The notes beneath the pieces are model-generated. The model did not search any database and was not told the DNA's origin. It was given only the letters and a program-made list of their open reading frames with translations. A stretch of DNA of 21,272 nt from a virus. Taxonomy: Duplodnaviria > Heunggongvirae > Uroviricota > Caudoviricetes. How positions within the stretch are numbered: the first letter of the stretch is position 1; each line of letters opens with the position of its first letter. Below are positions 1,012 through 20,369 of the stretch, one piece after another. Location of the stretch: the IMG/VR virus record IMGVR_UViG_2778261501_000004, positions 1 through 21,272 of that record; one strand, written 5' to 3'. The translations under genes and the position numbers were made by a program.

Positions 1012-1050
1012 CTTGGTGGCAAATGGTGAAAATGTAATTTTTATATAGAG

Positions 1051-1752: not shown

Positions 1753-1754
1753 TT

Positions 1755-1925
1755 ATGAATGAGCCGCGTTGTATTGCTCAGTTACTGCGTAACGAAAGCC
1801 CCAGGGCGATTGACTTCACCATCACCCACGGGAAGGGACGCAAGGGAATCATTATCCGCACCAAAAAACAGAGTCCGTTAAAAAAGGCTCTGACCTTTCT
1901 GAAAAGCCGGAGGGTATGGAAATGA
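1755..1925 (+). CDS. hypothetical early protein (P2 orf78 position)
   Basis: ATG 3 nt after the cox stop; small basic ORF. The track offers an alternative start at 1728 that overlaps cox. No recognisable domain. Confidence 0.45.
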   Translation: MNEPRCIAQLLRNESPRAIDFTITHGKGRKGIIIRTKKQSPLKKALTFLKSRRVWK

Positions 1926-2422: not shown

Positions 2423-2486
2423 ATAATTAACCAGAGTTTTTAACGCACTTAATCGTGCGGGGGCTTCTTTTTGCCTGGAGAAAGTC

Positions 2487-2711
2487 ATGCATACAGTTTC
2501 TGAAAACAAGTGCGGTAAATACGCATTACTGCTGCAACAGGCCAGAGCCGAAGCACAGGCCGACGCAGCGACACGCTTTTCTTCTCATCTTGACGCCATG
2601 ATTCGCCATATCACAAAGGCGGAGTTATCCCGCGTGGAGATAGTCGAGCTGCTCAGTCAGGAGTCGGAAAAATTTCACAATATCGGATTGTCTCGCGGGG
2701 AGGTGCTTTGA
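2487..2711 (+). CDS. hypothetical early protein (P2 orf80 position)
   Basis: 74-aa ORF with GGAG RBS; synteny only. Confidence 0.5.
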
Positions 2712-3010
2712 TGTCCTGTTCTAATTCAGTTGTATTACTGAATAACGCCTTAAAAATCGCCGTTATGAAAAATGGCGATTTATCTCTTATTCAACTTTGC
2801 CTTGATAAAGAAAAACGCGACATAACTGAATCTGTTATCGCGATTTATCAGAATGAATTAAACCTCCTGTCTGATGTGGTCAATTTACTTGTTAAACGCG
2901 CTGTATTCCACAAGCAAATTTCCTCAGTGGATGAACTGACAAAATTAACGACAGAACTTGCCAGTTATTGCGCTGATGTATCCAGGAAACTTAACGATAA
3001 AAGGAGCTGA
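2711..3010 (+). CDS. hypothetical early protein (P2 orf81 position)
   Basis: About 99-aa ORF; its ATG overlaps the stop of the previous ORF (TGATG). A TTG at 2708 is an alternative start. Synteny only. Confidence 0.5.
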   Translation: MSCSNSVVLLNNALKIAVMKNGDLSLIQLCLDKEKRDITESVIAIYQNELNLLSDVVNLLVKRAVFHKQISSVDELTKLTTELASYCADVSRKLNDKRS

Positions 3011-3012
3011 TA

Positions 3013-3237
3013 ATGCCGGACAACGTAGATTTTATTCAGGAACAACAGACTGAATTACTGGAGCGTCAGATTAACGCGGCAAGGGTAAAGCATTGCGGTG
3101 TTTCTGCGCTGGTTTGCGAAGAGTGTGACGCGCCAATACCTGCTGCCCGTCGTGCGGCTTATCCGTCAGCCACGCGTTGTGTTTCCTGCCAGTCAGTCTT
3201 TGAAGCAAAAAACAAACATTACCGGAGAACGGCATGA
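3013..3237 (+). CDS. TraR/DksA-family C4 zinc-finger protein (P2 orf82 position)
   Basis: 74-aa ORF with AAGGAG RBS; contains CEEC-x(n)-CVSC four-cysteine motif (CEECDAPIPAARRAAYPSATRCVSCQ) typical of phage TraR/DksA-like proteins. Confidence 0.7.
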   Translation: MPDNVDFIQEQQTELLERQINAARVKHCGVSALVCEECDAPIPAARRAAYPSATRCVSCQSVFEAKNKHYRRTA

Positions 3238-3509
3238 GTATTCGTATTGAAATTGGCGAACGTTATGTCGTTACCAGTGACAGCTTTCAGTTTATTCTCC
3301 ACGAGAAAAAGAGAGCGGAAAGCGGTAAAAACGCCGGTCAGGAATGGCTGTCGGTGGTTGGTTATTATCCGAAATTAAGCCAGCTCGTTTCCGGCCTGAT
3401 GCATCACGATATTCTGACCGGAAGCGCAAAGTCTTTTGCTGATTTAAACGCGCAGGTTGAGCAACTCAGCAGGCGTTGTTCAGAGGCTTTTGGCTCATAT
3501 GGCCGTTAA
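3234..3509 (+). CDS. hypothetical early protein (P2 orf83 position)
   Basis: 91-aa ORF; ATGA overlap with the previous stop; synteny only. Confidence 0.5.
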   Translation: MSIRIEIGERYVVTSDSFQFILHEKKRAESGKNAGQEWLSVVGYYPKLSQLVSGLMHHDILTGSAKSFADLNAQVEQLSRRCSEAFGSYGR

Positions 3510-5784: not shown

Positions 5785-6227
5785 TGGCAAAAATTCACGA
5801 GGTAAAGCTGCACGCCAAATATTTTGACCTTGTGCTGGAAGGAAAGAAACGCGCAGAGTTTCGGAAAAATGACCGTAATTATGAGCGCGGGGACACGTTG
5901 ATTTTGCATGAATGGGTACAGGGTGTGTATACGGGGCGAAAGGTTGAAGCCCGGATAACAGATGTTACTGACCTGTCAGACTGGCTGGAAGATTATGTCT
6001 TGCTAAGTATTGAGCGGCTTAATACAGGCGCATATGAGATTGTGAACTGGAAAGAACTTAGTGAGCGTGGTCTGGTATTCAGAATTAATCATGAAATTAT
6101 GCATCAGCTCGGCCTTGCTGTTATGTATGAGCCGGAGACGGGGCTGTCTGGCGGGGCAGTGGTTACTGCGGATGGGATATGGAACTATTCAGATGAACAG
6201 GTGGAGCGTACAAAGCAAAACGGGTGA
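5781..6227 (+). CDS. DUF3850/ASCH-like domain protein (cargo)
   Basis: Start overlaps the A stop (ATGATGG). N-terminal 80 aa (KIHEVKLHAKYFDLVLEGKKRAEFRKNDRNYERGDTLILHEW...) resemble the ASCH/PUA-like DUF3850 fold as I remember it; C-terminal half unassigned. Confidence 0.55.
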   Translation: MMAKIHEVKLHAKYFDLVLEGKKRAEFRKNDRNYERGDTLILHEWVQGVYTGRKVEARITDVTDLSDWLEDYVLLSIERLNTGAYEIVNWKELSERGLVFRINHEIMHQLGLAVMYEPETGLSGGAVVTADGIWNYSDEQVERTKQNG

Positions 6228-6442
6228 CTTGGATAATGCACAGAATACCAGGCGAGATACCGCACCATAAAACTAAAAATATCAAGCTGATGGCTATTGT
6301 TCAGCGTTTACAGCGGATTATGGTCAACGAAAATCTGACGCCCGATGAGCTGGTCGGGTGTGCCGAAATAGTCCGGGATAATTACGGGCGGTTTAACCAT
6401 ATCGGTCAATCAAGAGTTACGCCACCACCACGCAGACGATAG
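6224..6442 (+). CDS. hypothetical small protein
   Basis: 72-aa ORF overlapping the previous stop; no recognisable motif; could be non-coding. Confidence 0.3.
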   Translation: MTWIMHRIPGEIPHHKTKNIKLMAIVQRLQRIMVNENLTPDELVGCAEIVRDNYGRFNHIGQSRVTPPPRRR

Positions 6443-6639
6443 AGAACGCCGCCAGTCGTGAAACTTGTTTTCAGGGCTGGCGGGGTTGAACAACGAGCGA
6501 AGCGAGGCGTTAGCTAGGCTTTCTATATTGTTTACAATTAAACCTATCCAGAATTAATTGGAATTCAATTTGATCTTTTTCTCGCTACATATGGCCACAA
6601 GTACCAAAACGTGAGAACATCAAAGCTAGGCGAAATCTA

Positions 6640-6695
6640 GCTTTTCCATAGGAGTTGTTTCGTTATAATACGCGGTCGGTTTTTAGGAGGGGTCA
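6640..6695 (+). promoter_or_regulatory. candidate promoter and RBS of the methyltransferase gene
   Basis: Perfect TATAAT at 6664-6669 and AGGAGG at 6685-6690, 5 nt before the ATG at 6696; no convincing -35. Confidence 0.35.
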
Positions 6696-7634
6696 ATGCC
6701 AACTGTAGTGTCGCTTTTTTCCGGGTGTGGTGGTTCTGATGCAGGAGTCTTGAAGGCTGGGTTTGATGTTCTAATGGCGAATGACATTTTACCTTACGCT
6801 CGTGATGTGTATTTGGCTAACCATCCAGAAACTGATTATGTTTTGGGTGATGTCTCCACTATTGAATCGTTTCCATCTGCTGAACTGCTGGTTGGTTGCT
6901 ATCCCTGTCAAGGTTTTAGCCAAGGTGGAGTTCGAAAAGCTGATAGAAAAATTAATACGCTATACTTAGAGTTTGCAAGAGCTTTAAGAATAGTTAAGCC
7001 AAAAGCGTTCATTGTTGAAAACGTTTCTGGCATGTTGCGAAGTAACTTTGAACATTTGTTGAAAGATCAGTTCAAGGTTTTCGAAGAGGCTGGTTACAGA
7101 GTTAAATCTAAAATTCTAAATGCTTCTCATTTTGGTGTTGCTCAGGATCGTAAGCGCATTTTTATTGTTGGCATACATGAGAGATTTGGAGTTGATTTTT
7201 CGTTTCCAGTCGCGACTCATGGCGAAGGATTGAAAAGAGTGACTACTATCCGTGATGCGATAGGTTCGTTACCGGAATGGCCTGTTGGAGAGTTTTATGA
7301 TGCCGATTTCCATTGGTATTATTTATCAAGAAATCGCCGTCAGGACTGGGATCAAATCTCAAAAACCATAGTTGCTAATCCAAGGCATATGCCTTTACAT
7401 CCAATTAGTCCAACTCTTATAAAGTTAGGTCCAGATAAATGGCAATTTACATCAAATGAACGTGCACGGCGTTTTAGTTTTCGTGAGGCTGCTTATCTTC
7501 AAGGATTTAGTAATTTAGTTTTTCCTGAAACAGAGCGAGCATCCATGAATATGAAATATACAGTTGTCGGAAACGCCGTACCGCCCCCTTTATTCGAAGC
7601 GGTAGCGCGTTCATTACCTGATATTTGGGATTAA
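6696..7634 (+). CDS. DNA (cytosine-5)-methyltransferase
   Basis: 312 aa with canonical C5-MTase motifs in order: I FSGCGG, IV PCQGFS (catalytic Cys), VI ENV (FIVENVSG), VIII QDRKR, X GNAVPPP. AT-rich relative to phage backbone. Confidence 0.9.
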   Translation: MPTVVSLFSGCGGSDAGVLKAGFDVLMANDILPYARDVYLANHPETDYVLGDVSTIESFPSAELLVGCYPCQGFSQGGVRKADRKINTLYLEFARALRIVKPKAFIVENVSGMLRSNFEHLLKDQFKVFEEAGYRVKSKILNASHFGVAQDRKRIFIVGIHERFGVDFSFPVATHGEGLKRVTTIRDAIGSLPEWPVGEFYDADFHWYYLSRNRRQDWDQISKTIVANPRHMPLHPISPTLIKLGPDKWQFTSNERARRFSFREAAYLQGFSNLVFPETERASMNMKYTVVGNAVPPPLFEAVARSLPDIWD

Positions 7635-8560
7635 CTCAACACATAATCCATAGCCACTAAGTCATCAACAAACGTTAGATTGTCTTGGTGGTTTATCTGT
7701 GGATATTTTTTAGTCAGATTTACTAGTCTAAGTCTATCAACAAATATTGCAGCACCAAAATCACTCCTGTGAGCCCAGTCGCGGTTATGCCATCTTAAAT
7801 CTTGTGGAAGAAAATAATATGTTGACCATGGATGTAAGACAGGAAGCAAATTCCACAATTTAGCCGGTGTGGCCTCAAGTTGTTTTGCTACCCATTCAGT
7901 TTTTGAACATCCACATTGAGCAAGAGCAAGAGGTATAGACTCACGATTATCTCCCATATCATGCCAAGCGAGTATATCAATTCCTCCATCTCCCCTGTCA
8001 TTTGGTTTGAAATCTTCAATTGAAAAATTAGCTTTACATCTGAAATCTTGTGCTATTTTAGTTAACTTATCAAAGAGTAAGCCAGTGTAGTGACCTGAAT
8101 TACCTGCGCTAGCCCAACAGTGTTTAACTGTTGCTCCTTCAGGCATGAGGGCTTGAAATATGGGATAGCTTATTTTCTCAAATGCACTTGTAAATATGTC
8201 ACGGTGACTATTTTCTATATATTTTATATTTGCACAGGCTAAGAGTGCTATGTATAGTTTTTCATTTTGATTGTAATCAGCAATATTATGCTTTCTTAAG
8301 AATAATGTGTCTCTGTCATCAGAAAAATAAAAGGGGTAATCATCACCGAAAAGGCTAATTCTTGTGTCAATGAATGTCGCTGCAAAATTCCATTTATCGT
8401 CAGAATACCCGCGTGACTTTGGATTTGCTTGAGACCTAAAGAGGCTTGCTAGATCTCCTCTACTAAAGCATTTGTCTGTATTTACTGTAGCCCATAACTC
8501 TAAATAGTCGCCCCATAAATATGGCTCGTTATCGGGTAATGAGTCCATGTGAAAAATCAT
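7631..8560 (-). CDS. putative nuclease, Mrr-like PD-(D/E)xK signature (cargo, second gene of minus-strand pair)
   Basis: 309-aa ORF; start ATG overlaps the stop of the upstream gene (TAATG); contains NDRGDGGIDILAW followed by a Q-x-x-x-x-K region, reminiscent of the GDGGID core of Mrr-type restriction nuclease domains. 3' end overlaps the MTase stop by about 4 nt. Confidence 0.55.
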   Translation of the reverse strand: MIFHMDSLPDNEPYLWGDYLELWATVNTDKCFSRGDLASLFRSQANPKSRGYSDDKWNFAATFIDTRISLFGDDYPFYFSDDRDTLFLRKHNIADYNQNEKLYIALLACANIKYIENSHRDIFTSAFEKISYPIFQALMPEGATVKHCWASAGNSGHYTGLLFDKLTKIAQDFRCKANFSIEDFKPNDRGDGGIDILAWHDMGDNRESIPLALAQCGCSKTEWVAKQLEATPAKLWNLLPVLHPWSTYYFLPQDLRWHNRDWAHRSDFGAAIFVDRLRLVNLTKKYPQINHQDNLTFVDDLVAMDYVLS

Positions 8561-9639
8561 TATTCATCTTCCTCACGGATGCTTTCAATTTGTTTTTTAA
8601 TTTTACGCGCTATAGATAATATTTCACTCGAACGATATTCGTGATTTTCTGTGAAAGAGTGCGTGTTGAGAAGCATATCCCAAACAACTCTTAGTCGAGA
8701 TTCTGCTTGGTCTAGAGCTTGATCCAAAGCCTCTTCATGACCATTTGTATATAAATAGGCTTCTTCAATGTTTTTAGACTTTATGAGGTTATCTATTGCT
8801 GCTTCATTGGCAACTATTGTTGAAAGATTTTTGATCTTGCGACTTTCACCAATGATAGTATCACCCTGTTGATCTCTAACAAAGAACCAAGCAAAAAGCT
8901 TCTCAAGGTTTTCCTCTTTCAGGTTTTTAGCAGATAAATCTTTTCTATCATCTAAGCCTAACCAGTCTGTAATGTTAGTATATCCAAGAGCTGTTGTTAT
9001 GTAGGAAAAATCGACATCATTCTCACTCATATGCAAATTATAGAAGTTTTTATCAGCAGCGGTTTCATATAATTTGAGTGAAGTTAATAAAAGGCCGACG
9101 TAATAAGATTTACTGCCAATTTCTTTAGCTAATGACTTTAAAAGAGATTCTTTGTCTGCACCTTTGTAGAAAGTTTCACTAAGCTCCTTAAGATACTTAG
9201 CTTTAGAAAGTGCATCCCATTCTTTCACACCAGTAATGTGTCTATATCCGATATAACGTAACACATCTTCACGTCTTGTGTAGACGAGACAAGGTAATTT
9301 AGTCGGTTTATAAGTAGCATCGTCCTGAATTAGTTGAATGCTTTTTTCTTTTCTTTTAGGTGGTAAAAGTTCGCTATTGAGCAACTTTACGGCAGCAAGG
9401 CGACGGTTACCCTCAACTACAACATATTTTTTCCCGGAACTAACCACTAAAAGAGGTTCTCCGGGAAAGTAATCTTGTTCCCCTATGGACAGCATCAAAT
9501 CTTGTACACTTTCGTCATCAAGCATTTCTTCAATGACGGCATTTTCAGATCCAGCCCTATCGTTTAACCGATAGAAACGTGGGTTTTCAGGATCAAACTC
9601 TAGATCTTCCGTGTTTATGTATTTGATTTCGTTGCTCAT
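8560..9639 (-). CDS. ParB/Srx N-terminal domain protein (cargo, first gene of minus-strand pair)
   Basis: 359-aa ORF; residues 1-90 show the ParB N-terminal pattern (DPENPRF ... SIGEQDYFPGEPLLVV ... YVVVEGNRRLAAVKLL, i.e. the GxRR arginine box); remainder predicted helical, unassigned. Confidence 0.65.
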   Translation of the reverse strand: MSNEIKYINTEDLEFDPENPRFYRLNDRAGSENAVIEEMLDDESVQDLMLSIGEQDYFPGEPLLVVSSGKKYVVVEGNRRLAAVKLLNSELLPPKRKEKSIQLIQDDATYKPTKLPCLVYTRREDVLRYIGYRHITGVKEWDALSKAKYLKELSETFYKGADKESLLKSLAKEIGSKSYYVGLLLTSLKLYETAADKNFYNLHMSENDVDFSYITTALGYTNITDWLGLDDRKDLSAKNLKEENLEKLFAWFFVRDQQGDTIIGESRKIKNLSTIVANEAAIDNLIKSKNIEEAYLYTNGHEEALDQALDQAESRLRVVWDMLLNTHSFTENHEYRSSEILSIARKIKKQIESIREEDE

Positions 9640-9830
9640 AATTGTATTCTGCGCAGATATAAGGATGACTTGCTACAGCATAACCTTATGTTTAGCATCT
9701 GTCATTATGATGGCTGCCTTATGCATGATTTTGCATCCATTTTTTATTTTATTTTTTTGGGGGCGCATTAGGCCCGATATGGTTTTTGGAGACGATGCGT
9801 TTGCATCAAAACAGCCCCATGAAGCGGGCG

Positions 9831-9849
9831 GGCGAGGCGGGGAAAGCAC
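9831..9849. other. cos cohesive-end site (P2-type 19-nt sequence)
   Basis: GGCGAGGCGGGGAAAGCAC matches what I recall as the P2 19-nt cohesive end, and sits where cos is expected, between the A-side cargo and the Q/P packaging genes. Confidence 0.6.
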
Positions 9850-9990
9850 TGCGCGCTGGCAGTAGTGCTGATTTTATTTTTTCAGCGTCTGAGCGCGTCG
9901 TGATGGCGTTTAGATTGTGTGCCGGGGCGTTGGTTTGTCTGCGGGCTATTTTGCGCGGAGGTGAGCGTGTGAGGGCGTGATGGCGGGGTG

Positions 9991-10013
9991 TAAAAAAGCC
10001 GCCCGCAGGCGGC
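9991..10013 (-). terminator. rho-independent terminator downstream of Q (leftward late operon)
   Basis: GCCGCC-CGCA-GGCGGC hairpin followed on the minus strand by a T-run (plus-strand AAAAAA at 9992-9997), 6 nt past the Q stop. Confidence 0.55.
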
Positions 10014-10018
10014 GATGT

Positions 10019-11053
10019 TCAGCCGTTGTCAGTGTCCAGTGAGTAGTTTTTAAAGCGGATGACCTCCTGACCGAGCCAGCCGTTTATCTCGCGGATCCTG
10101 TCCTGTAACGGGATAAGCTCATTGCGGACAAAGACCTTTGCCACTTTCTCAATATCACCCAGCGACCCGACGTTCTCCGGCTTGCCGCCCATCAACTGAA
10201 AGGGGATGCGGTGCGCGTCCAGCAGGTCAGCGGCGCTGGCTTTTTTGATATTAAAAAAATCGTCCTTCGTTGCCACTTCACTGAGCGGGATAATTTTTAT
10301 GCCGTCGGCTTTCCCCTGTGGGGCATAGAGAAACAGATTTTTAAAGTTATTGCGGCCTTTCGACTTAACCATGTTTTCGCGAAGCATTTCGATATCGTTG
10401 CGATCCTGCACGGCATCGGTGACGTACATGATGTATCCGGCATGTGCGCCATTTTCGTAATACTTGCGGCGGAACAGCGTGGCCGACTCATTCAGCCAGG
10501 CAGAATTAAGGGCGCTCAGATATTCCGGCAGGCCGTACAACTCCTGATTGATATCCGGCTCCAGCAGGTGAAACACGGAGCCGGGCGTGAAGGCTGTCGG
10601 CTCGTTGAAGGACGGCACCCACCAGTAAACATCCTCCTCCACGCCACGGCGGGTATATTTTGCCGGTGAGGTTTCCAGTCTGATGACCTTACCGGTGGTG
10701 CTGTAACGCTTTTCCAGAAACGCATTACCGAACACCAGAAAATCCAGCACAAAGCGGCTGAAATCCTGCTGGGAAAGCCACGGATGCGGGATAAATGTCG
10801 AGGCCAGAATATTACGTTTGACGTAAATCGGTGAGCTGTGATGCACGGCAGCACGCAGGCTTTTTGCCAGACCGGTAAAGCTGACCGGTGGCTCATACCA
10901 TCTGCCGTTACTGATGCACTCGACGTAATCCAGAATGTCACGGCGGTCGAGTACCGGCACCGGCTCACCAAAGGTGAATGCCTCCATTTTCGGGGCGCTG
11001 GCGGTCATTGTTTTCACCGCTGGCTGCGGTGTTTTCCCTTTTTTCTTGCTCAT
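10019..11053 (-). CDS. portal protein gpQ
   Basis: 344 aa, leftward, start overlaps terminase stop; size and position as P2 Q. Confidence 0.85.
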   Translation of the reverse strand: MSKKKGKTPQPAVKTMTASAPKMEAFTFGEPVPVLDRRDILDYVECISNGRWYEPPVSFTGLAKSLRAAVHHSSPIYVKRNILASTFIPHPWLSQQDFSRFVLDFLVFGNAFLEKRYSTTGKVIRLETSPAKYTRRGVEEDVYWWVPSFNEPTAFTPGSVFHLLEPDINQELYGLPEYLSALNSAWLNESATLFRRKYYENGAHAGYIMYVTDAVQDRNDIEMLRENMVKSKGRNNFKNLFLYAPQGKADGIKIIPLSEVATKDDFFNIKKASAADLLDAHRIPFQLMGGKPENVGSLGDIEKVAKVFVRNELIPLQDRIREINGWLGQEVIRFKNYSLDTDNG

Positions 11054-12825
11054 CAGTAAAACTCCAGAATGGTGGATGTCAGCGGGGTGCTGATACCGGC
11101 GGTGAGTGGCTCATTTAACAGGGCGTGCATGGTCGCCCAGGCGAGGTCGGCGTGGCTGGCTTCCTCGCTGCGGCTGGCCTCATAGGTGGCGCTGCGTCCG
11201 CTGCTGGTCATGGTCTTGCGGATAGCCATAAACGAGCTGGTGATGTCGGTGGCGCTGACGTCATATTCCAGACAGCCACGGCGGATGACGTCTTTTGCCT
11301 TGAGCACCATTGCGGTTTTCATTTCTGGTGTGTAGCGGATATCGCGCGCGGCGGGATAGAACGAGCGCACGAGCTGGAACACGCCGACACCGAGGCCGGT
11401 GGCATCAATACCGATGTATTCGACGTTATATTTTTCGGTGAGTTTGCGGATGGATTCCGCCTGGGTGGCAAAGTCCATGCCTTTCCACTGGTGACGCTCA
11501 AGTATTCTGAATTTGCCACCGGCCACCACCGGCGGTGCCAGCACCACACATCCGGCACTGTCGCCACGGTGTGACGGGTCGTAACCAATCCATACCGGAC
11601 GGGAGCCGAACGGATTCGCGGCAAACGGCGCATAGTCTTCCCATTCTTCCAGCGTGTCGACCATGCAGCGTTGCAGCTCCTCGAACGGGAACACCGACGC
11701 CTTGTCGTCAACAAATTCACACATGAACAGGTTTTTAAAATCGTCGGCGCTGTTTTCGCGTTTGAGCTGCTCAATGTCGAACAGCGTGCAGCCACCTTTC
11801 AGGGCGTCCTCAATGGTGACAATCTGTCGCCACTGGCCGTCCGCACAGAGAAGCCCACCGGCAAGGGCGTTATGACTGACGTCGATTTCCACGCGTTCGG
11901 CGGCGCTGGCGCGTCCCCGGTTATACAGTTCACCCGACCAGAACGGGTAGGCGTCGTGCGCCAGCGTGGACGGGGTGGAGAAATAGGTCGAACGCAGGTG
12001 ACTCTGTGAGGCCATACCTGATGCCACCTTACGCAGTACCTGAAAATTCGGGATCCAGAAAATCTCGTCGACGTACAGGTCGCCGTTATGGCTCTGCGCG
12101 GTGTTGGAGTTGGTGCCGAGAAAAATCAGTTTTGCGCCGTTATTGCCCAGGACAATCGGGTCACCGGTCAGGTCAACGTCAACCAGACGGGCAAAGGCGA
12201 TGATGTATTCGCGGAACACATACGCCTGCGTTTTACTGGCCGACAGAAAAATCTGGTTATGACCGGTTTTCAGGGCGCGCAGCAGCGCCTCGCGGGAAAA
12301 ATAAAATGTCGCGCCAATCTGGCGGGATTTCAGGATATCGCGGATGCGGTGCTCAAGCCCGGCGCGATACCAGTGCAACTGATAGTCGAAAGACTGCTCA
12401 AAGAAAATCTGCTCCAGCTTTTCGATGGCCTCGTCACTGAAAAAATTCTTTTTCGGTTTGCGCCGCCCGCCTTTGTTGCGGTTAGCGACGTTCGGATTAA
12501 GGTCTGCCTCGTTGCCGGTCTGGCTGTAGCGATTTACCCGTGCCAGTCGTTCAATCTGGCGTCCCAGCAGGTCAATTTCCTTGAAGTCACCGCCGGTTTT
12601 CTGCGGTTTGATGATGAGCTGGGTCAGCCGCGCTTCCAGGCTCATTTCGACACGGCTGATGGGGGCAACGCTGTCCCAGCCGTCGCGCTGTTTCCAGCTC
12701 TGCACCGTCGGGCGTTTCATCTGCAACATGGCGGCAATCTGCGGCACGGAAAACCCCTGCCAGTACAGCAGCGCCGCCTGACGACGCGGGTCGTGTAAAA
12801 GAGTGGTGTCTGTGGTGATGGTCAT
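11053..12825 (-). CDS. terminase large (ATPase) subunit gpP
   Basis: Start taken at ATG 12823-12825 (MTITTDTTLLHDPRRQAALLYWQGFSVPQIA...), giving 590 aa; the track ORF extends 17 codons further upstream. Divergent from O, as in P2. Confidence 0.85.
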   Translation of the reverse strand: MTITTDTTLLHDPRRQAALLYWQGFSVPQIAAMLQMKRPTVQSWKQRDGWDSVAPISRVEMSLEARLTQLIIKPQKTGGDFKEIDLLGRQIERLARVNRYSQTGNEADLNPNVANRNKGGRRKPKKNFFSDEAIEKLEQIFFEQSFDYQLHWYRAGLEHRIRDILKSRQIGATFYFSREALLRALKTGHNQIFLSASKTQAYVFREYIIAFARLVDVDLTGDPIVLGNNGAKLIFLGTNSNTAQSHNGDLYVDEIFWIPNFQVLRKVASGMASQSHLRSTYFSTPSTLAHDAYPFWSGELYNRGRASAAERVEIDVSHNALAGGLLCADGQWRQIVTIEDALKGGCTLFDIEQLKRENSADDFKNLFMCEFVDDKASVFPFEELQRCMVDTLEEWEDYAPFAANPFGSRPVWIGYDPSHRGDSAGCVVLAPPVVAGGKFRILERHQWKGMDFATQAESIRKLTEKYNVEYIGIDATGLGVGVFQLVRSFYPAARDIRYTPEMKTAMVLKAKDVIRRGCLEYDVSATDITSSFMAIRKTMTSSGRSATYEASRSEEASHADLAWATMHALLNEPLTAGISTPLTSTILEFY

Positions 12826-12998
12826 GAATACCTCGCCGTGATGAATACACGGCAAGGCTACTGAGTCGCGTCCCACGATTCGCTAAGGTGCTGTTGTGTC
12901 AGTGATAAGCCATCCGGGACTGATGGCGGAGGATGCGCATCGTCGGGAAACTGATGCCGACATGTGACTCCTCTAATCACTATTCAGGACTCCTGACA
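12826..12998. promoter_or_regulatory. divergent late promoter region (P_P leftward, P_O rightward), Ogr-dependent in P2
   Basis: 173-bp intergenic region between divergent P and O starts; promoter elements not resolved by eye. Confidence 0.45.
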
Positions 12999-13853
12999 AT
13001 GGCAAAAAAAGTCTCAAAATTCTTTCGTATCGGCGTTGAGGGTGACACCTGTGACGGGCGTGTCATCAGTGCGCAGGATATTCAGGAAATGGCCGAAACC
13101 TTTGACCCGCGTGTCTATGGTTGCCGTATTAACCTGGAACATCTGCGCGGCATCCTGCCTGACGGTATTTTTAAGCGTTATGGCGATGTGGCCGAACTGA
13201 AGGCCGAAAAGATTGACGATGATTCGGCGCTGAAAGGCAAATGGGCGCTGTTTGCGAAAATCACCCCGACCGATGACCTTATCGCGATGAACAAGGCCGC
13301 GCAGAAGGTTTATACCTCAATGGAAATTCAGCCGAACTTTGCCAACACCGGCAAATGTTATCTGGTGGGACTGGCCGTCACCGATGACCCGGCAAGCCTC
13401 GGTACGGAATACCTGGAATTCTGCCGCACGGCAAAACACAACCCCCTGAACCGCTTCAAATTAAGCCCTGAAAACCTGATTTCAGTGGCAACGCCCGTTG
13501 AGCTGGAATTTGAAGACCTGCCTGAAACCGTGTTCACCGCCCTGACCGAAAAGGTGAAATCCATTTTTGGCCGCAAACAGGCCAGCGATGACGCCCGTCT
13601 GAATGACGTGCATGAAGCGGTGACCGCTGTCGCTGAGCATGTGCAGGAAAAGCTGAGTGCCACTGAGCAGCGCCTCGCTGAGATGGAAACCGCCTTTTCC
13701 GCACTTAAGCAGGAGGTGACTGACAGGGCGGATGAAACCAGCCAGGCATTCACCCGCCTGAAAAACAGTCTCGACCACACCGAAAGTCTGACCCAGCAGC
13801 GCCGCAGCAAGGCCACCGGCGGTGGCGGTGACGCCCTGATGACGAACTGCTGA
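12999..13853 (+). CDS. capsid scaffolding protein gpO
   Basis: Start at ATG 12999 (MAKKVSKFFRIGVEGDTCDGR...), 284 aa; first gene of rightward late operon. Confidence 0.85.
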   Translation: MAKKVSKFFRIGVEGDTCDGRVISAQDIQEMAETFDPRVYGCRINLEHLRGILPDGIFKRYGDVAELKAEKIDDDSALKGKWALFAKITPTDDLIAMNKAAQKVYTSMEIQPNFANTGKCYLVGLAVTDDPASLGTEYLEFCRTAKHNPLNRFKLSPENLISVATPVELEFEDLPETVFTALTEKVKSIFGRKQASDDARLNDVHEAVTAVAEHVQEKLSATEQRLAEMETAFSALKQEVTDRADETSQAFTRLKNSLDHTESLTQQRRSKATGGGGDALMTNC

Positions 13854-13911
13854 CCGGCGTCAGTCAGTCCGGGAAAACCTTCACGATTAACCCTTAATTT
13901 CAGGAAAAACT

Positions 13912-14985
13912 ATGCGCCAGGAAACCCGCTTTAAATTTAATGCCTACCTGTCCCGTGTTGCCGAACTGAACGGCATCGCCGCCGGTGATGTGTCGAAAAA
14001 ATTCACCGTTGAACCGTCGGTCACCCAGACCCTGATGAACACCATGCAGGAGTCCTCTGATTTTCTGACCCGCATCAACATTGTGCCGGTCAACGAAATG
14101 AAAGGGGAAAAAATTGGTATCGGTGTCACCGGCTCCATCGCCAGCACCACCGACACCGCCGGTGGCACCGAGCGTCAGCCGAAGGACTTCTCGAAGCTGG
14201 CGTCTAACAAGTACGAATGCGACCAGATTAACTTCGATTTTTATATCCGCTACAAAACGCTTGACCTGTGGGCGCGTTATCAGGATTTCCAGCTCCGTAT
14301 CCGTAACGCCATTATCAAACGCCAGTCCCTTGATTTCATTATGGCCGGTTTTAACGGCGTGAAGCGTGCAGAAACCTCTGACCGCAGCAGCCATCCGATG
14401 CTGCAGGATGTGGCGGTCGGCTGGCTGCAGAAATACCGCAATGAAGCCCCGGCGCGTGTGATGAGTAAGGTCACTGACGAGGAAGGCCGCACCACCTCTG
14501 AGGTTATCCGCGTGGGTAAGGGCGGTGATTATGCCAGCCTTGATGCACTGGTGATGGATGCGACCAACAACCTGATTGAGCCGTGGTATCAGGAAGACCC
14601 TGACCTTGTGGTGATTGTGGGGCGTCAGTTACTGGCGGACAAGTATTTCCCCATCGTTAACAAGGAGCAGGACAACAGCGAAATGCTGGCCGCTGACGTC
14701 ATCATCAGCCAGAAACGCATCGGTAACCTGCCAGCGGTACGCGTCCCGTACTTCCCGGCGGATGCGATGCTCATCACGAAGCTGGAAAACCTGTCCATCT
14801 ACTACATGGATGACAGCCATCGCCGCGTGATTGAGGAAAACCCGAAACTCGACCGCGTGGAGAACTACGAGTCAATGAACATTGATTACGTGGTGGAAGA
14901 CTACGCCGCCGGTTGTCTGGTGGAAAAAATTAAGGTCGGTGATTTCTCCACACCGGCTAAAGCGACCGCAGAGCCGGGAGCGTAA
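13912..14985 (+). CDS. major capsid protein gpN
   Basis: 357-aa ORF after O; size and position as P2 N. Confidence 0.85.
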   Translation: MRQETRFKFNAYLSRVAELNGIAAGDVSKKFTVEPSVTQTLMNTMQESSDFLTRINIVPVNEMKGEKIGIGVTGSIASTTDTAGGTERQPKDFSKLASNKYECDQINFDFYIRYKTLDLWARYQDFQLRIRNAIIKRQSLDFIMAGFNGVKRAETSDRSSHPMLQDVAVGWLQKYRNEAPARVMSKVTDEEGRTTSEVIRVGKGGDYASLDALVMDATNNLIEPWYQEDPDLVVIVGRQLLADKYFPIVNKEQDNSEMLAADVIISQKRIGNLPAVRVPYFPADAMLITKLENLSIYYMDDSHRRVIEENPKLDRVENYESMNIDYVVEDYAAGCLVEKIKVGDFSTPAKATAEPGA

Positions 14986-14988
14986 CCG

Positions 14989-15726
14989 ATGACGAGTCCC
15001 GCACAGCGCCACATGATGCGGGTCTCGGCAGCGATGACCGCGCAGCGGGAAGCCGCCCCGCTGCGACATGCAACTGTCTATGAGCAGATGCTGGTTAAGC
15101 TCGCCGCAGACCAGCGCACACTGAAAGCGATTTATTCAAAAGAGCTGAAGGCCGCGAAAAAACGCGAACTGCTGCCGTTCTGGTTGCCGTGGGTGAACGG
15201 CGTGCTGGAGCAGGGCAAAGGTGCACAGGATGACATTCTGATGACGGTCATGCTGTGGCGTCTGGATACCGGCGATATTGCCGGTGCGCTGGAGATTGCC
15301 CGTTATGCCCTGAAGTACGGTCTGACCATGCCGGGTAAACACCGCCGTACCCCGCCGTACATGTTCACCGAGGAGGTAGCGCTTGCGGCCATGCGCGCTC
15401 ATGCTGCCGGTGAGCCTGTGGACCCCCGCCTGCTGACGGACACCCTTGAACTGACCGCCACGGCTGATATGCCTGATGAAGTGCGCGCAAAGCTGCACAA
15501 AATCACCGGTCTGTTTCTGCGTGACGCTGGTGATGCCGCAGGGGCGCTGGCGCATCTGCAACGTGCGACACAGCTCGACTGTCAGGCAGGCGTAAAAAAA
15601 GAGATTGAACGACTGGAGCGGGAGCTGAAACCGAAGCCGGAGCCAAAAGCGGTCACCCGCGCCCCGCGTAAGATCCGGAGTGCGACACCGGCAAAACGTG
15701 GACGCCCGAAAAAGAAAGCCAGTTAA
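14989..15726 (+). CDS. terminase small/endonuclease subunit gpM
   Basis: 245-aa ORF 3 nt after the N stop; basic C-terminal tail; P2 M position. Confidence 0.8.
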   Translation: MTSPAQRHMMRVSAAMTAQREAAPLRHATVYEQMLVKLAADQRTLKAIYSKELKAAKKRELLPFWLPWVNGVLEQGKGAQDDILMTVMLWRLDTGDIAGALEIARYALKYGLTMPGKHRRTPPYMFTEEVALAAMRAHAAGEPVDPRLLTDTLELTATADMPDEVRAKLHKITGLFLRDAGDAAGALAHLQRATQLDCQAGVKKEIERLERELKPKPEPKAVTRAPRKIRSATPAKRGRPKKKAS

Positions 15727-15825
15727 CAACCGAATGCGCCCCGCGCCAGGGCGGCACGCCGGTCAGTGAGGGTGAATCACCTGACACAGCACCGGCGTCC
15801 ACCGCCCGACTTTTCAGAGGTAGTC

Positions 15826-16335
15826 ATGATGACGCTGATTATTCCGCGAAAGGAGGCTCCCGTGTCCGGTGAGGGTACGGTGGTCATCCCGCAACCGGCA
15901 GGCGACGAGCCGGTGATTAAAAACACGTTCTTTTTTCCCGATATCGACCCGAAGCGCGTCCGGGAACGTATGCGCCTTGAGCAGACCGTCGCCCCCGCCC
16001 GTCTGCGTGAGGCCATCAAGTCAGGCATGGCGGAAACAAATGCGGAGCTGTACGAGTACCGCGAACAGAAAATTGCCGCCGGTTTTACGCGTCTGGCGGA
16101 CGTTCCGGCAGACGATATCGACGGTGAAAGCATCAAAGTTTTTTACTACGAGCGCGCCGTGTGTGCGATGGCGACCGCGTCGCTTTATGAGCGTTATCGC
16201 GGCGTGGATGCCAGTGCGAAAGGCGACAAGAAGGCCGACAGCATTGACAGCACCATTGATGAGCTGTGGCGGGATATGCGCTGGGCAGTGGCGCGCATCC
16301 AGGACAAGCCGCGTTGCATCGTGAGTCAAATCTGA
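15826..16335 (+). CDS. head completion/stabilisation protein gpL
   Basis: Start taken at ATG 15826 with AGAGG RBS (MMTLIIPRKEAP...), 169 aa; track ORF begins earlier at 15766. Confidence 0.8.
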   Translation: MMTLIIPRKEAPVSGEGTVVIPQPAGDEPVIKNTFFFPDIDPKRVRERMRLEQTVAPARLREAIKSGMAETNAELYEYREQKIAAGFTRLADVPADDIDGESIKVFYYERAVCAMATASLYERYRGVDASAKGDKKADSIDSTIDELWRDMRWAVARIQDKPRCIVSQI

Positions 16336-16538
16336 TGAAGACCTTTGCGCTACAGGGCGACACGCTCGACGCCATTTGTGTCCGGTATTACGGGCGCACT
16401 GAGGGCGTGGTTGAGACCGTGCTCGCCGCAAATCCGGGACTGGCTGAACTGGGTGCGGTGCTGCCACACGGCACCGCCGTCGAACTGCCCGACGTTCAGA
16501 CCGCGCCCGTGGCTGAAACTGTCAATCTGTGGGAGTAA
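16335..16538 (+). CDS. tail protein gpX
   Basis: 67-aa ORF, ATGA overlap with the L stop (MKTFALQGDTLDAICVRYYG...). Confidence 0.75.
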   Translation: MKTFALQGDTLDAICVRYYGRTEGVVETVLAANPGLAELGAVLPHGTAVELPDVQTAPVAETVNLWE

Positions 16539-16541
16539 CGC

Positions 16542-16823
16542 ATGACAGCAGAAGAAAAAAGCGTCCTGTCGCTTTTCATGATTGGGGTGCTGATTGTTGT
16601 CGGCAAGGTGCTTGCCGGTGGTGAACCCATCACCCCGCGTCTGTTTATCGGGCGCATGTTGCTCGGTGGTTTTGTCTCGATGGTTGCCGGTGTTGTTCTG
16701 GTGCAGTTTCCTGACCTGTCACTGCCTGCGGTGTGCGGCATCGGCTCCATGCTGGGTATCGCCGGTTATCAGGTGATTGAGATTGCCATTCAGCGCCGCT
16801 TTAAGGGCAGGGGGAAACAGTAA
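16542..16823 (+). CDS. holin gpY
   Basis: 93 aa, hydrophobic membrane-spanning stretches and charged C-terminus; first gene of lysis cassette. Confidence 0.8.
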   Translation: MTAEEKSVLSLFMIGVLIVVGKVLAGGEPITPRLFIGRMLLGGFVSMVAGVVLVQFPDLSLPAVCGIGSMLGIAGYQVIEIAIQRRFKGRGKQ

Positions 16824-17320
16824 TGCCGGTAATTAACACGCATCAGAATATCGCCGCCTTTCTCGACATGCTGGCAGTGTCCGAAGGGACGGCGAATCAT
16901 CCGCTGACGAAAAACCGGGGCTATGACGTGATAGTCACCGGACTGGACGGAAAGCCGGAAATTTTCACCGACTACAGTGACCACCCGTTCGCGCATGGCC
17001 GACCGGCGAAGGTGTTTAACCGTCGCGGTGAAAAATCCACGGCCTCCGGTCGCTATCAGCAGCTTTACCTGTTCTGGCCGCATTACCGCAAACAGCTTGC
17101 CCTGCCGGATTTCAGTCCGTTGTCACAGGACAGACTCGCCATTCAGTTGATCCGCGAACGCGGTGCACTGGATGACATCCGGGCGGGACGCATTGAGCAC
17201 GCCATTTCACGCTGTCGCAATATCTGGGCGTCCCTGCCGGGAGCCGGTTACGGTCAGCGTGAGCATTCACTGGAAAAACTGGTCACCGTCTGGCGTACCG
17301 CCGGCGGCGTACCGGCTTAA
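16823..17320 (+). CDS. endolysin (lysozyme) gpK
   Basis: 165 aa, start overlaps holin stop; position and size as P2 K. Confidence 0.8.
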   Translation: MPVINTHQNIAAFLDMLAVSEGTANHPLTKNRGYDVIVTGLDGKPEIFTDYSDHPFAHGRPAKVFNRRGEKSTASGRYQQLYLFWPHYRKQLALPDFSPLSQDRLAIQLIRERGALDDIRAGRIEHAISRCRNIWASLPGAGYGQREHSLEKLVTVWRTAGGVPA

Positions 17321-17334
17321 ACGGAGTAAACACC

Positions 17335-17760
17335 ATGAAGAAATTATCCCTTTCACTGATGCTGAACGTGTCGCTGGCGCTGATGCTGGCACTGTCCCTG
17401 ATTTACCCGCAGAGCGTGGCCGTCAGTTTTGTCGCCGCCTGGGCGATTCTGGCGACGGTTATCTGTGTGGTTGCCGGTGGTGTCGGCGTGTATGCCACTG
17501 AGTATGTGCTGGAACGCTACGGGCGGGAGCTGCCGCCGGAATCGCTGGCCGTGAAGATTGTCGCGTCGCTGTTTTTGCAGCCGGTGCCGTGGCGCAGACG
17601 GGCGGCGGCTCTGGTGGTGATGGTGGCGACGTTTATCTCGCTGGTCGCTGCCGGGTGGATTTTTACCGCGCTGATTTACCTCGTGGCGTCGGTGTTCTTC
17701 CGGTTGATACGCACGGCCTGTCGTCAGCGTTTTGAGGGGCGGGAACCATGTCAAAGCTGA
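17335..17760 (+). CDS. lysA: LysA, membrane lysis-timing protein
   Basis: 141 aa, several hydrophobic helices; follows K. Confidence 0.7.
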   Translation: MKKLSLSLMLNVSLALMLALSLIYPQSVAVSFVAAWAILATVICVVAGGVGVYATEYVLERYGRELPPESLAVKIVASLFLQPVPWRRRAAALVVMVATFISLVAAGWIFTALIYLVASVFFRLIRTACRQRFEGREPCQS

Positions 17761-18173
17761 TGATTGTGCTGGTTGTGTTGTTATCACTGGCGGTGGCCGG
17801 TCTGTTTCTGGCGAAGCATGAAAACGCCAGCCTGCGCACCTCGCTGGACAGGGCGAACAACGTCGCCAACGGGCAGCAGACGACCATCACCATGCTGAAA
17901 AATCAGCTTCATGTTGCCCTCGCCAGAGCAGACAAAAACGAGCTGGCGCAGGTGGCACTGCGTCAGGAACTGGAGAACGCGGCGAAGCGTGAAGCACAGC
18001 GCGAGAAAACCATCACGAGGTTACTGAATGAAAACGAAGATTTTCGCCGCTGGTACGGCGCTGGCCTGCCTGATGCTGTGCGCCGGTTGCACCAGCGCCC
18101 GGCCTGCACCGACGCCAGTGATTGTCGCCAACGCCTGCCCGAAAGTGAGTCTTTGCCCGATGCCGGGCAGTGA
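17748..18173 (+). CDS. lysB: LysB, Rz-like inner-membrane spanin
   Basis: 141 aa, N-terminal membrane anchor then charged helical region; overlaps lysA stop. Confidence 0.7.
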   Translation: MSKLMIVLVVLLSLAVAGLFLAKHENASLRTSLDRANNVANGQQTTITMLKNQLHVALARADKNELAQVALRQELENAAKREAQREKTITRLLNENEDFRRWYGAGLPDAVRRLHQRPACTDASDCRQRLPESESLPDAGQ

Positions 18174-18318
18174 CCCGGAGACGAACGGTGATTTAAGTGC
18201 CGATATCCGGCAGCTTGAGAACGCGCTGGCACGCTGTGCCAGCCAGGTAAAAATGATTAAACACTGTCAGGACGAAAACGATGCTCAAACCCGACAGCCT
18301 GCGCAGGGCGCTGACTGA
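18028..18318 (+). CDS. lysC: LysC, Rz1-like outer-membrane lipoprotein spanin
   Basis: 96-aa ORF in the +1 frame, starting inside lysB; signal peptide with lipobox LCAGC; proline-rich mature part. Confidence 0.65.
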   Translation: MKTKIFAAGTALACLMLCAGCTSARPAPTPVIVANACPKVSLCPMPGSDPETNGDLSADIRQLENALARCASQVKMIKHCQDENDAQTRQPAQGAD

Positions 18319-18748
18319 TGCCGTCACGGTGCTGAAAACTAACCCCGATATGCTGCGGATATTCGTGGATAACGGGAGTATTGCCTCCACACTGGCGACG
18401 TCGCTGTCATTCGAAAAGCGTTACACGCTCAATGTCATTGTGACCGACTTTACCGGTGATTTTGACCTGCTCATCGTGCCGGTGCTGGCGTGGCTGCGGG
18501 AAAATCAGCCCGACATCATGACCACCGACGCAGGCCAGAAAAAGGGATTCACGTTTTATGCAGACATCAACAATGACAGCAGCTTTGATATCAGCATCAG
18601 CCTGATGCTGACCGAGCGCACGCTGGTCAGTGAGGTGGACGGCGCACTGCATGTGAAGAATATCCCGGAACCCCCGCCGCCGGAGCCGGTCACCCGCCCG
18701 GTGGAGCTTTATATCAATGGCGAACTGGTGAGCAAGTGGGATGAATGA
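18281..18748 (+). CDS. tail completion protein gpR
   Basis: 155 aa; position and size as P2 R. Confidence 0.75.
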   Translation: MLKPDSLRRALTDAVTVLKTNPDMLRIFVDNGSIASTLATSLSFEKRYTLNVIVTDFTGDFDLLIVPVLAWLRENQPDIMTTDAGQKKGFTFYADINNDSSFDISISLMLTERTLVSEVDGALHVKNIPEPPPPEPVTRPVELYINGELVSKWDE

Positions 18749-19193
18749 GTTTAAGCGTTTTGAAGACCGGCTGACCGGACTGATTGAGTCGCTGTCACCG
18801 TCAGGGCGTCGGCGACTGAGCGCCGAACTGGCAAAACGTCTGCGACAGAGTCAGCAGCGTCGGGTGATGGCTCAGAAAGCCCCGGACGGCACACCCTACG
18901 CGCCACGCCAGCAGCAGAGCGCCAGAAAAAAGACTGGTCGTGTTAAGCGAAAAATGTTTGCGAAACTTATCACCAGTCGTTTTTTGCATATCCGCGCCAG
19001 CCCGGAGCAGGCATCAATGGAATTTTACGGCGGGAAGTCGCCGAAAATCGCCAGTGTGCATCAGTTCGGTCTGTCGGAAGAAAACCGGAAAGACGGTAAG
19101 AAAATTGATTATCCGGCGCGTCCTCTGCTCGGCTTTACCGGTGAGGATGTGCAGATGATTGAAGAGATTATCCTGGCTCACCTCGACCGTTAG
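18741..19193 (+). CDS. tail completion / virion morphogenesis protein gpS
   Basis: 150 aa, overlaps R stop; position and size as P2 S. Confidence 0.75.
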   Translation: MNEFKRFEDRLTGLIESLSPSGRRRLSAELAKRLRQSQQRRVMAQKAPDGTPYAPRQQQSARKKTGRVKRKMFAKLITSRFLHIRASPEQASMEFYGGKSPKIASVHQFGLSEENRKDGKKIDYPARPLLGFTGEDVQMIEEIILAHLDR

Positions 19194-19259
19194 TTGTGCC
19201 ATTCCTGACACCTCATCGTCACATTGCCGCCGGTATGACCCGGCGGCATCCTTCCCGTT
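19194..19259 (+). promoter_or_regulatory. expected late promoter P_V region
   Basis: Intergenic S-V interval; contains TGT...ACA partial dyad (19195-19210) near where an Ogr-type site would be, but the spacing does not match the consensus I remember. Confidence 0.3.
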
Positions 19260-19832
19260 ATGAACACTCTCGCAAATATTCAGGAACTCGCGCGCGCACT
19301 GCGTAACATGATCCGCACCGGCATTATCGTCGAAACCGACCTTAACGCCGGTCGCTGCCGTGTGCAGACCGGCGGCATGTGCACCGACTGGCTTCAGTGG
19401 CTGACCCATCGCGCCGGTCGTTCGCGCACATGGTGGGCACCTTCCGTGGGGGAACAGGTGCTGATTCTGGCCGTGGGCGGTGAACTCGACACGGCATTCG
19501 TTCTGCCGGGGATTTATTCCGGCGATAACCACGCGCCGTCTGCGTCGGCGGATGCCCTGCATATCCGTTTCCCTGACGGGGCGGTGATTGAGTATGAACC
19601 CGAAACCAGTGCACTTACGGTAGCGGAGTTCTCCATCAGCCTGGCTACCGGTCGGGCAGATATTTACACGGAAACACCGGTCAAAGTGTCAGGCTTTAAG
19701 CGTGTCATAGACGAGCAGGACTGGACAATCACTAAGGTGACACATTTTCTGAATAATAGCGGCTTCACGACGTCCTTAGAGCTTGAGGTAAGGCTTTCTG
19801 ATGTGGAGTACGAAACCGAAGATGATGAGTGA
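19260..19832 (+). pseudogene. baseplate spike gpV remnant (N-terminal part of V joined to unrelated C-terminal sequence; probable V-to-D deletion fusion)
   Basis: 190-aa ORF; N-terminal ~120 aa look like gpV, but the acidic C-terminus (…RLSDVEYETEDDE) is unlike a spike domain, and ogr follows 83 bp later with no W, J, I, H, G, F, E, T, U or D genes in between. Confidence 0.55.
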
Positions 19833-19851
19833 TGTGTTTTATTTTATCTGT

Positions 19852-19880
19852 TTGTTTTATAAGGATAAATTAACTAAAAT
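19852..19880 (+). promoter_or_regulatory. candidate sigma70 promoter of ogr
   Basis: TTGTTT (19852-19857), 17-bp spacer, TAAAAT (19875-19880); 35 nt upstream of the ogr ATG. Confidence 0.4.
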
Positions 19881-19914
19881 GGCAACATCAACAAAACCGG
19901 AAGAGGTGCTCGCG

Positions 19915-20133
19915 ATGTTTCATTGTCCTTTATGCCAGCATGCCGCACATGCGCGTACAAGCCGCTATATCACTGACACGACAAAAGAGCGTTATCACCA
20001 GTGCCAGAACGTGAATTGCAGCGCCACGTTCATTACTTATGAGTCGGTACAGCGATACATCGTGAAGCCGGGAGAAGTCCACGCCGTGAGGCCGCACCCG
20101 TTGCCGTCAGGGCAGCAAATTATGTGGATGTGA
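19915..20133 (+). CDS. ogr: late gene transcriptional activator Ogr (Cys4 zinc finger)
   Basis: 72-aa ORF MFHCPLCQHAAHARTSRYITDTTKERYHQCQNVNCSATF...; CxxC-x(n)-CxxxxC zinc-finger arrangement; matches P2 Ogr as I recall it. Confidence 0.9.
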   Translation: MFHCPLCQHAAHARTSRYITDTTKERYHQCQNVNCSATFITYESVQRYIVKPGEVHAVRPHPLPSGQQIMWM

Positions 20134-20143
20134 TCACAAAAAT

Positions 20144-20170
20144 AGCCCCTCAGTTGAGGGGCTTTATTTA
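20144..20170 (+). terminator. rho-independent terminator after ogr
   Basis: AGCCCCTC-AGTT-GAGGGGCT hairpin followed by TTTATTTA. Confidence 0.6.
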
Positions 20171-20202
20171 TGGTCGATGTGGACGCTATGTGGACAGTGC
20201 TT

Positions 20203-20222
20203 GATATAAATCCATTTATATC
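20203..20222. repeat. perfect 9-bp inverted repeat (GATATAAAT cc ATTTATATC)
   Basis: Read directly; lies in the interval where the prophage right end (attR) must fall. Confidence 0.5.
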
Positions 20223-20261
20223 ATCAGGTTAGGTGCTTTTTTGTGACACCATCCCTGTCTT

Positions 20262-20288
20262 CCCCCACATGATGTGGGGGTTTTTTTT
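20262..20288 (+). terminator. strong rho-independent terminator, probably the host cpxP 3' end (CpxQ sRNA terminator)
   Basis: CCCCCACAT-g-ATGTGGGGG perfect hairpin followed by eight T; sits about 80 bp upstream of fieF, where cpxP ends in E. coli K-12. Confidence 0.55.
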
Positions 20289-20369
20289 ATCCTCAATTTG
20301 CCTGCTGCTTAATGCATTGCAGATGATTTGCTTCCGTTATACTAGCGTCAGTTGATAGCGGGAGTATTT

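Follow-up and report, generated by a model that had tools for sequence, protein, structure and literature searches.

A P2-like prophage of Escherichia coli without tail genes and with a recurrent deletion breakpoint in gene V

Gene content and integration site of the element

The window, i.e., the whole stretch of 21,272 nt of viral DNA analysed here, is by its sequence a defective member of the P2-like (Peduovirus) prophages of E. coli and carries an integrase of the Wphi/L-413C type (Table 1). Megablast searches against phage genomes returned close relatives of P2, and every match reached only to window positions 19627–19630 before it resumed elsewhere in the phage. In blastn comparisons with L-413C, window positions 1–6277 corresponded to L-413C 23342–29618 (int to orf91), 9831–19630 to L-413C 1–9807 (cos through the 5′ part of V) and 19620–20291 to L-413C 22557–23225 (the 3′ end of D, ogr and attP), with an additional short block at the cos overlap; the blocks overlap at their aligned ends because of local similarity. 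Both blastn and tblastn found the element colinear with L-413C and P2, i.e., it follows the P2 gene order with early (int-C-cox-B-A) and late operons. Searching with every L-413C protein by tblastn, we recovered int, C, cox, B, orf80-83, A, orf91, Q, P, O, N, M, L, X, Y, K, lysA, lysB, R, S and ogr at full length and free of stop codons. Amino acid identity to L-413C/P2 was 92–100% for the head, lysis, tail-completion and replication genes, 84% for cox and 65% for C. These matches and an exact cos bear out the first-pass annotation of this DNA, according to which immunity, replication, cos, terminase, portal, capsid, lysis and Ogr have been kept.

Table 1. Features of the element in the window (a slash marks the deletion junction)
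Feature	Position	Strand	Evidence
Integrase, Wphi/L-413C type	1–1011	−	97.9% aa identity to L-413C Int, full length; 51.5% to P2 Int
Immunity repressor C, divergent allele	1054–1344	−	Full-length L-413C gpC match, 65% identity; HTH_3 domain
Early operon: cox, B, orf80-83, A (replication endonuclease), orf91	1465–6224	+	Full-length stop-free tblastn matches, 84–99%
Accessory cargo replacing P2 tin/old	6696–9639	mixed	C5 DNA methylase plus two minus-strand ORFs
C5 cytosine DNA methylase	6696–7634	+	PF00145, E = 3e-60
Cargo ORFs	7631–8560 and 8560–9639	−	No Pfam match for either
cos, 19-nt cohesive end GGCGAGGCGGGGAAAGCAC	9831–9849	+	Exact P2 cos match
Portal Q and large terminase P	10019–12825	−	99.1% and 99.7% aa identity, full length
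O, N, M, L, X, Y, K, lysA, lysB, R, S (scaffold, capsid, small terminase, head completion, lysis, tail completion)	12999–19193	+	Full length, 93–100% aa identity
5′ part of V, codons 1–121 (baseplate-spike OB-fold)	19260–19622	+	= L-413C 9436–9798, P2 10308–10670; PF04717; 3QR8
Deletion junction ACGGTA/GCGGAG, in-frame V121::D319 fusion	19622/19623	+	Base-by-base inspection
3′ end of D, codons 319–387 and stop	19623–19832	+	= L-413C 22560–22769
ogr, late transcription activator, intact	19915–20133	+	98.6% aa identity, full length; PF04606
attR core, 47-bp block	20245–20291	+	Three-way alignment of window, L-413C attP and K-12 cpxP/CpxQ terminator

In gene order and in nucleotide identity (94–98% across the early, head, lysis and ogr regions) the element resembles P2, L-413C and Wphi, and its integrase and att core type are those of L-413C and Wphi. 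The three phages differ from it by a tail module of 12.8–13.1 kb that is missing in the window, by another C allele (65% identity) and by other cargo at the tin/old position. While int and cox-B-A on either side are 84–98% identical to their L-413C counterparts, the repressor itself reaches only 65%, from which we infer that the immunity specificity of the element probably differs. Within the cargo, the ORF at 8560–9639 has a homologue annotated in RefSeq as a ParB N-terminal domain protein, and prophages at the fieF locus in strains E2 and 20-16 carry the same methylase-containing cargo (within window 6278–9800). It may represent a restriction or defence module.

The attR core coincides with the terminator, i.e., the 3′ end, of cpxP and of the CpxQ sRNA; this 47-bp block is duplicated by integration and shows one mismatch to K-12. 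The att core of L-413C is identical to that of Wphi (PMC3448106). The host gene fieF follows ogr in the window and, read from the attR side, the insertion site is the cpxP/CpxQ terminator upstream of fieF; attL falls outside the window. The 110-aa ORF at 19801–20133 in the list of open reading frames is merely ogr read from an in-frame ATG farther upstream, which lies within the last part of the V::D fusion described below; the real ogr start is at 19915.

The V::D fusion and the missing tail genes

The ORF at positions 19260–19832 (+) encodes a protein of 190 aa with two origins. Its residues 1–121 are those of P2/L-413C gpV and also match the solved gpV structure 3QR8, where the similarity ends at residue 121, and its residues 122–190 are the gpD C terminus 319–387 with two substitutions (K142R and E190D). 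The OB domain PF04717 (residues 19–86) was the sole Pfam match; the spike domain PF18715 was absent from the fusion in this search, so that the protein has a part only of the gpV spike architecture. Likewise, gpD, a VgrG-like hub (PF05954) of ~387 aa in its full form, is represented by residues 319–387 only, and no Pfam match was found there. Already in the first-pass annotation, the ORF had been read as a 190-aa V with a C terminus unlike that of the spike. Alignment to gpV and gpD agrees with this, placing the junction at V121::D319 and identifying the C terminus as gpD, not gpV, with two corrections of detail: the part foreign to gpV is 69 aa long instead of 65, and ogr, which indeed comes directly after this ORF, is separated from the stop codon by 82 nt, not 83.

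At the nucleotide level, the junction at 19622/19623 reads ...GCACTTACGGTA/GCGGAGTTCTCC... and the sequence missing between its two sides is L-413C 9799–22559 (12,761 bp), equivalent to P2 10671–23744 (13,074 bp). In the tblastn search with every L-413C protein, W, J, I, H, G, FI, FII, E, T and U had no match in the window. As had been proposed, the baseplate, fibre, sheath and tube genes are thus gone, and the tape-measure gene is gone too; what is left of the contractile tail module (V W J I H G FI FII E T U D) are the V and D fragments fused together. Homology at the junction is minimal, consisting of GT plus a mismatch. We rejected a deletion via microhomology at GCGGA, which is common to V and D, as its product would have an extra A and be out of frame, in conflict with the observed junction.

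These observations are best accounted for by one non-homologous deletion of ~12.8–13.1 kb that would have extended from just after V codon 121 to just before D codon 319 and removed the 3′ part of V, all of W, J, I, H, G, the G-FI spacer, FI, FII, E/E′, T and U and most of D. The ends would have been joined in frame by chance, linking the gpV OB domain to the last 69 residues of gpD, and the resulting 190-aa protein is most likely a functionless by-product. The colinear blocks, the gpV 1–121::gpD 319–387 composition of the protein and the exact junction all speak for a single deletion between 5′ V and 3′ D, which the first-pass annotation had suggested as the simplest explanation; this was correct and at the same time incomplete, the V-side breakpoint being a recurrent hot spot, as described below.

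The source is a draft assembly, and an assembly artefact or a naturally short V allele would offer a trivial explanation. We consider either one extremely improbable and found nothing in its support. The gene and its neighbourhood are present in two independent assemblies (NCBI GCA_002510415.1, where the junction is inside a 105-kb contig, and Logan SRR3987532), the same fusion occurs in other strains, in one case on a 371-kb contig, and complete genomes share the V-side break. The fusion protein has been recorded as WP_172903892.1, and there are four further variants of the 190-aa fusion in other E. coli. A natural V allele is contradicted by the tail of the ORF, which is gpD sequence in the gpD reading frame.

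As its non-tail genes are intact, the element should still be immune, excisable, replicative and lytic, judged from reading frames only, and it is predicted to be unable to build a tail or an infectious particle alone. In this respect it is a case of ordinary prophage decay.

A recurrent breakpoint in V and its partners

With the junction region as query, we searched 5426 complete E. coli genomes and found the identical junction in none of them. In two of the 5426, the V and D fragments are adjacent (OHT76-1, at fieF, and 23CRST025, at trhP), and in both V is cut after the same ...ACGGTA and joined to D positions other than that of the window. A 120-nt probe centred on the V break matched 1573 records of the complete E. 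coli genomes, 71 of them partially, and all three partial matches that were sampled stop at V nt 363. By comparison, a control probe of 120 nt from elsewhere in V matched 1552 records, all with at least 80% coverage. A full-length V probe gave the same pattern as the centred one, with two of three sampled truncations ending at nt 363. The V-side break is a hot spot at which ~4.5% (~1 in 22) of the V genes in complete E. coli genomes end, a share that comes from phylogenetically non-independent genomes and for which the exact end at nt 363 was read in the three sampled records.

The same position emerged when proteins were searched with the fusion sequence. Members of at least 17 clusters leave gpV right after ...EPETSALTV and continue in J, I, H, G, FI (at several positions), T, D (again at several positions) or ogr, either in or out of frame, whereas other positions of divergence from V were seen once each. 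The DNA of 10 loci (L002, L003, L009, L011, L012, L014–17 and L157) reads ...ACGGTA/ followed by differing P2 sequence. The position serves as a right-hand breakpoint as well, where .../SGIKTAS is preceded by at least six different upstream partners, and in a diverged P2-like phage with a V of 68% identity the break falls at the corresponding position. The dinucleotide TA directly precedes the break in 11 of 16 V121 partners (P = 5e-12, given a TA frequency of 4.45% in P2) and in 5 of 15 other left ends (P = 4e-4). A pattern scan for the V break with a next base other than A had no match in IMG/VR; the 73 metagenome and 65 GTDB genome loci that it returned include none with V homology and are chance matches.

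The defective prophages of E. coli OHT76-1, 23CRST025, E2 and 20-16 resemble the element in the window in that V is cut after ...ACGGTA at codon 121 and ogr is kept. They differ in their right partners (the D nt 847 region, D codon 233 and H), and most prophages of this kind bear extra deletions or IS insertions, whereas the element in the window has a single lesion. We hold with high confidence that the loss of the tail genes in this Wphi-type P2-like prophage goes back to a single deletion of ~13 kb with its V end at a recurrent hot spot. The deletion would have arisen by break-and-join, with breakage at a preferred site (...CGGTA/AG...) and joining with almost no homology.

V121::D319 itself is also present in a prophage with P2-type Int at trhP (locus L012). 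The V sequences of the window and of L012 differ at 20 of 366 nt and are nearly identical for ~60 nt on either side of the junction. From this distribution, V121::D319 may have had a single origin and have spread by homologous recombination between prophages, rather than having formed in the prophage of the window; we therefore make no claim that the junction formed there. A single origin followed by recombination cannot, however, account for the many different partners of V121. Another case of one junction at two loci is an identical 187-aa fusion of V(1–121) to Ogr (from codon 7), encoded by a gene at 10001–10564, which is found at trhP (L014/L015/L017) and at pflB (L016); its carriers at the two loci have different att regions and different extra deletions, and 6 of 363 V positions differ between them.

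The closest known object is the cryptic P2 remnant of K-12 (PR-X, comprising the yegZ pseudogene and ogrK next to cyaR/trhP). As in the window, the 3′ part of D, ogr and attR have been kept, and the D fragment in yegZ starts at the exact D nucleotide of the window (/GCRGAGTTCTCC, D codon 319). The left partner in K-12 is the P2 attL core (AAAAAATAAGCCCGTGTA/; ...AAGCCCGTGTA/), everything from int to D codon 318 is lost, and the attachment site is that of P2. In the window, by contrast, the left partner is V codon 121, ~19.6 kb of prophage have been kept and the site is cpxQ-fieF. The yegZ boundary (L006 3812–3830) reads AAAAAATAAGCCCGTGTA/GCAGAGTTCTCC, i.e., the break falls within the centre of the attL core, which continues directly into D codon 319. 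Altogether, the D position of the window is joined elsewhere to the attL core (in K-12), to S codon 84 and to FI.

Further positions are reused in a similar fashion. Within the P gene, P2 nt 1502 (GCGTGTA/) has four right partners and nt 2117 (ACGGGTA/) two partners in all, and a break recurs at nt 1047 in Q (P2 numbering). S codon 84 (TTGCATA/) is a left end with at least five right partners, the D position of the window included, and at least 10 left partners have S codon 11 as their right end. P2 position 21536 in T is joined to one partner, D codon 233, and positions 22137 in T, 12311 in I and 18351 in FI (all P2) have two left partners each. The window itself is intact at 18773/18774 and 18990/18991 (S codons 11 and 84), at 11949/11950 (in P, equivalent to P2 nt 2117) and at ~10880 (in Q), all of which are deletion endpoints in other E. 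coli prophages. Deletions at two of the loci, L009 (1379–1501) and L157 (568), are independent of each other and have their right ends at P2 29880 and 29918, ~12–26 nt from the origin nick site in gene A (P2 29892).

Possible causes of the breakpoints and their consequences

Recent large surveys of P2-like elements described defective copies and no consistent pattern in the pseudogenization or loss of core genes (PMC13586616). The breakpoints collected here make it quite possible, although we would not yet call it probable, that the decay of P2-like prophages is non-random and proceeds via a small network of discrete break-and-join positions that can be used repeatedly, which would imply a DNA-breaking and -joining activity with sequence specificity. 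Such a network may include V codon 121/122 as its busiest site, followed by P nt 1502 and 2117, Q 1047, S codons 11 and 84, V codon 139, T 21536 and 22137, I 12311, FI 18351 and D codons 233 and 319, and in many of these sites ...(C)GG(N)TA directly precedes the break. The activity behind it may be that of an integrase in trans, of a type II topoisomerase or of some unknown nuclease. If true, the network explains the boundary that the K-12 yegZ remnant and the element in the window have in common. IS-mediated adjacent deletion was rejected, as no IS sequence lies at any V121 junction, and the predicted DNA folding around the V site (z = −0.45 and −0.77) is no better than that of shuffled sequence and gives no support for a hairpin.

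One of the specific readings is that the breakpoints are secondary (pseudo-att) sites of the P2-type integrase, which would cut them after ...CG(K)GTA, as in the P2 att core CCCGTGTA/AGGGAG, and then join them. Int would be made constitutively together with C in lysogens, and internal segments would be deleted in the same way as int-dependent eduction deletes host DNA. In P2 eduction, the prophage and neighbouring host genes are lost in an int-dependent manner; as in the window, the deletion has one fixed, specific end and one variable end. The fixed end in eduction is att, however, and host DNA is lost, whereas both ends in the window lie inside the prophage, and a role of Int is unsupported for Wphi-type elements. 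In favour of the integrase, the P2 attL core in the K-12 remnant is broken at GTGTA/AGGG and joined to the very D position of the window, TA is strongly over-represented left of the V121 breaks as given above, and the V site (CACGGTA/AGCGG), the P sites (GCGTGTA/GCGG and ACGGGTA/GGCG) and the two sites joined in locus L002 (ACGGGTAAG and ACGTGTAAG, minus strand) all resemble the centre of the P2 core, CGTGTAAG. The location of int in the lysogenic operon with C (PMC3936717) also counts for it. Nevertheless, we regard this reading as unlikely. The Int of the window is only 51.5% identical to that of P2, its 47-bp core has no CG(K)GTA-type motif, and a comparison of this resident Wphi-type core with the junction sites found no similarity, and at least three independent V121 events fell in Wphi-type fieF prophages (the window, OHT76-1 and E2/20-16). 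When all P2 positions were ranked by their match to the P2 core (as 27-, 16-, 12- and 10-mers), the frequently used sites were not at the top, and 163–450 positions outscored V121. CGGTAAG has 17 strict copies in P2, of which the one at S codon 118 is not a breakpoint, and several of the frequently used sites lack the motif, such as S codon 84 (GCATA/T) and S codon 11. Strong cleavage sites of DNA gyrase or topoisomerase IV, with deletions arising by subunit exchange, i.e., by illegitimate recombination independent of short homology, would explain how each site can act on either side of a junction and be combined with many partners. This corresponds with a two-way network of discrete positions of which either side is usable and with the little or no homology at the junctions. 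The centre of the published gyrase consensus for E. coli, ...GGCGGTAT/NNNN/ATACCGCC... (PMC6379681), resembles the CGGTA of several of the frequently used sites, but the register is one nucleotide off relative to the cut in that consensus. Moreover, by a crude score against the 133-nt consensus, which is weak evidence in both directions, these sites were scattered between the 10th and 95th percentiles of P2 positions without enrichment. On balance, we think that topoisomerase cleavage is quite improbable as the cause.

A different view of the element itself places it in a lineage of satellite-like, helper-dependent derivatives of P2, which would keep cos, replication, packaging and head genes, borrow their tails from a P2-like phage resident in the same cell and spread between strains and loci. 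The loss of the tail block alone, with every other gene intact, fits this view, and so do identical junctions at different loci with different integrase modules (V121::D319 at fieF and trhP, V121::ogr at trhP and pflB). P4 satellites and capsid-forming PICIs, like the element in the window, are unable to assemble a full virion alone and could in principle use the parts of a helper, but they have satellite-specific functions. Among the annotated ORFs of the window we found no satellite genes of the P4-like or capsid-forming PICI-like kind; apart from the missing tail genes, the element is simply a P2 genome, and its dependence on a helper would be hypothetical. The DNA-filled heads and the complementation by a co-resident helper that the first-pass annotation had suggested are likewise hypothetical. 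From window position 1 to attR at 20291 the element measures ~20.4 kb, ~61% of the 33.6 kb of P2, which is an awkward size for packaging, and it is doubtful that a monomer of ~20.4 kb is packaged into a head of P2 size. Most other V121 carriers, however, have further deletions that inactivate terminase, capsid or replication genes, or IS insertions, which is a pattern of decay, and many V121 junctions are out of frame. Junctions common to several loci can be explained by homologous recombination between prophages as well. Taken together, a satellite-like lineage is very unlikely, and we retain the reading as a decayed prophage.

Without tails, the element poses no infectious risk alone, but it may confer immunity, carry its methylase cargo and lyse the cell if derepressed. 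Its wider value lies in a recurrent breakpoint that is exact to the nucleotide, has many partners and, in one of its junctions, involves a boundary of the classic P2 remnant of K-12. If a specific enzyme underlies these breakpoints, the domestication of prophages in E. coli would be partly mechanistic and predictable, which, if true, would have a bearing on the annotation of remnants and on the engineering of stable P2-based lysogens.
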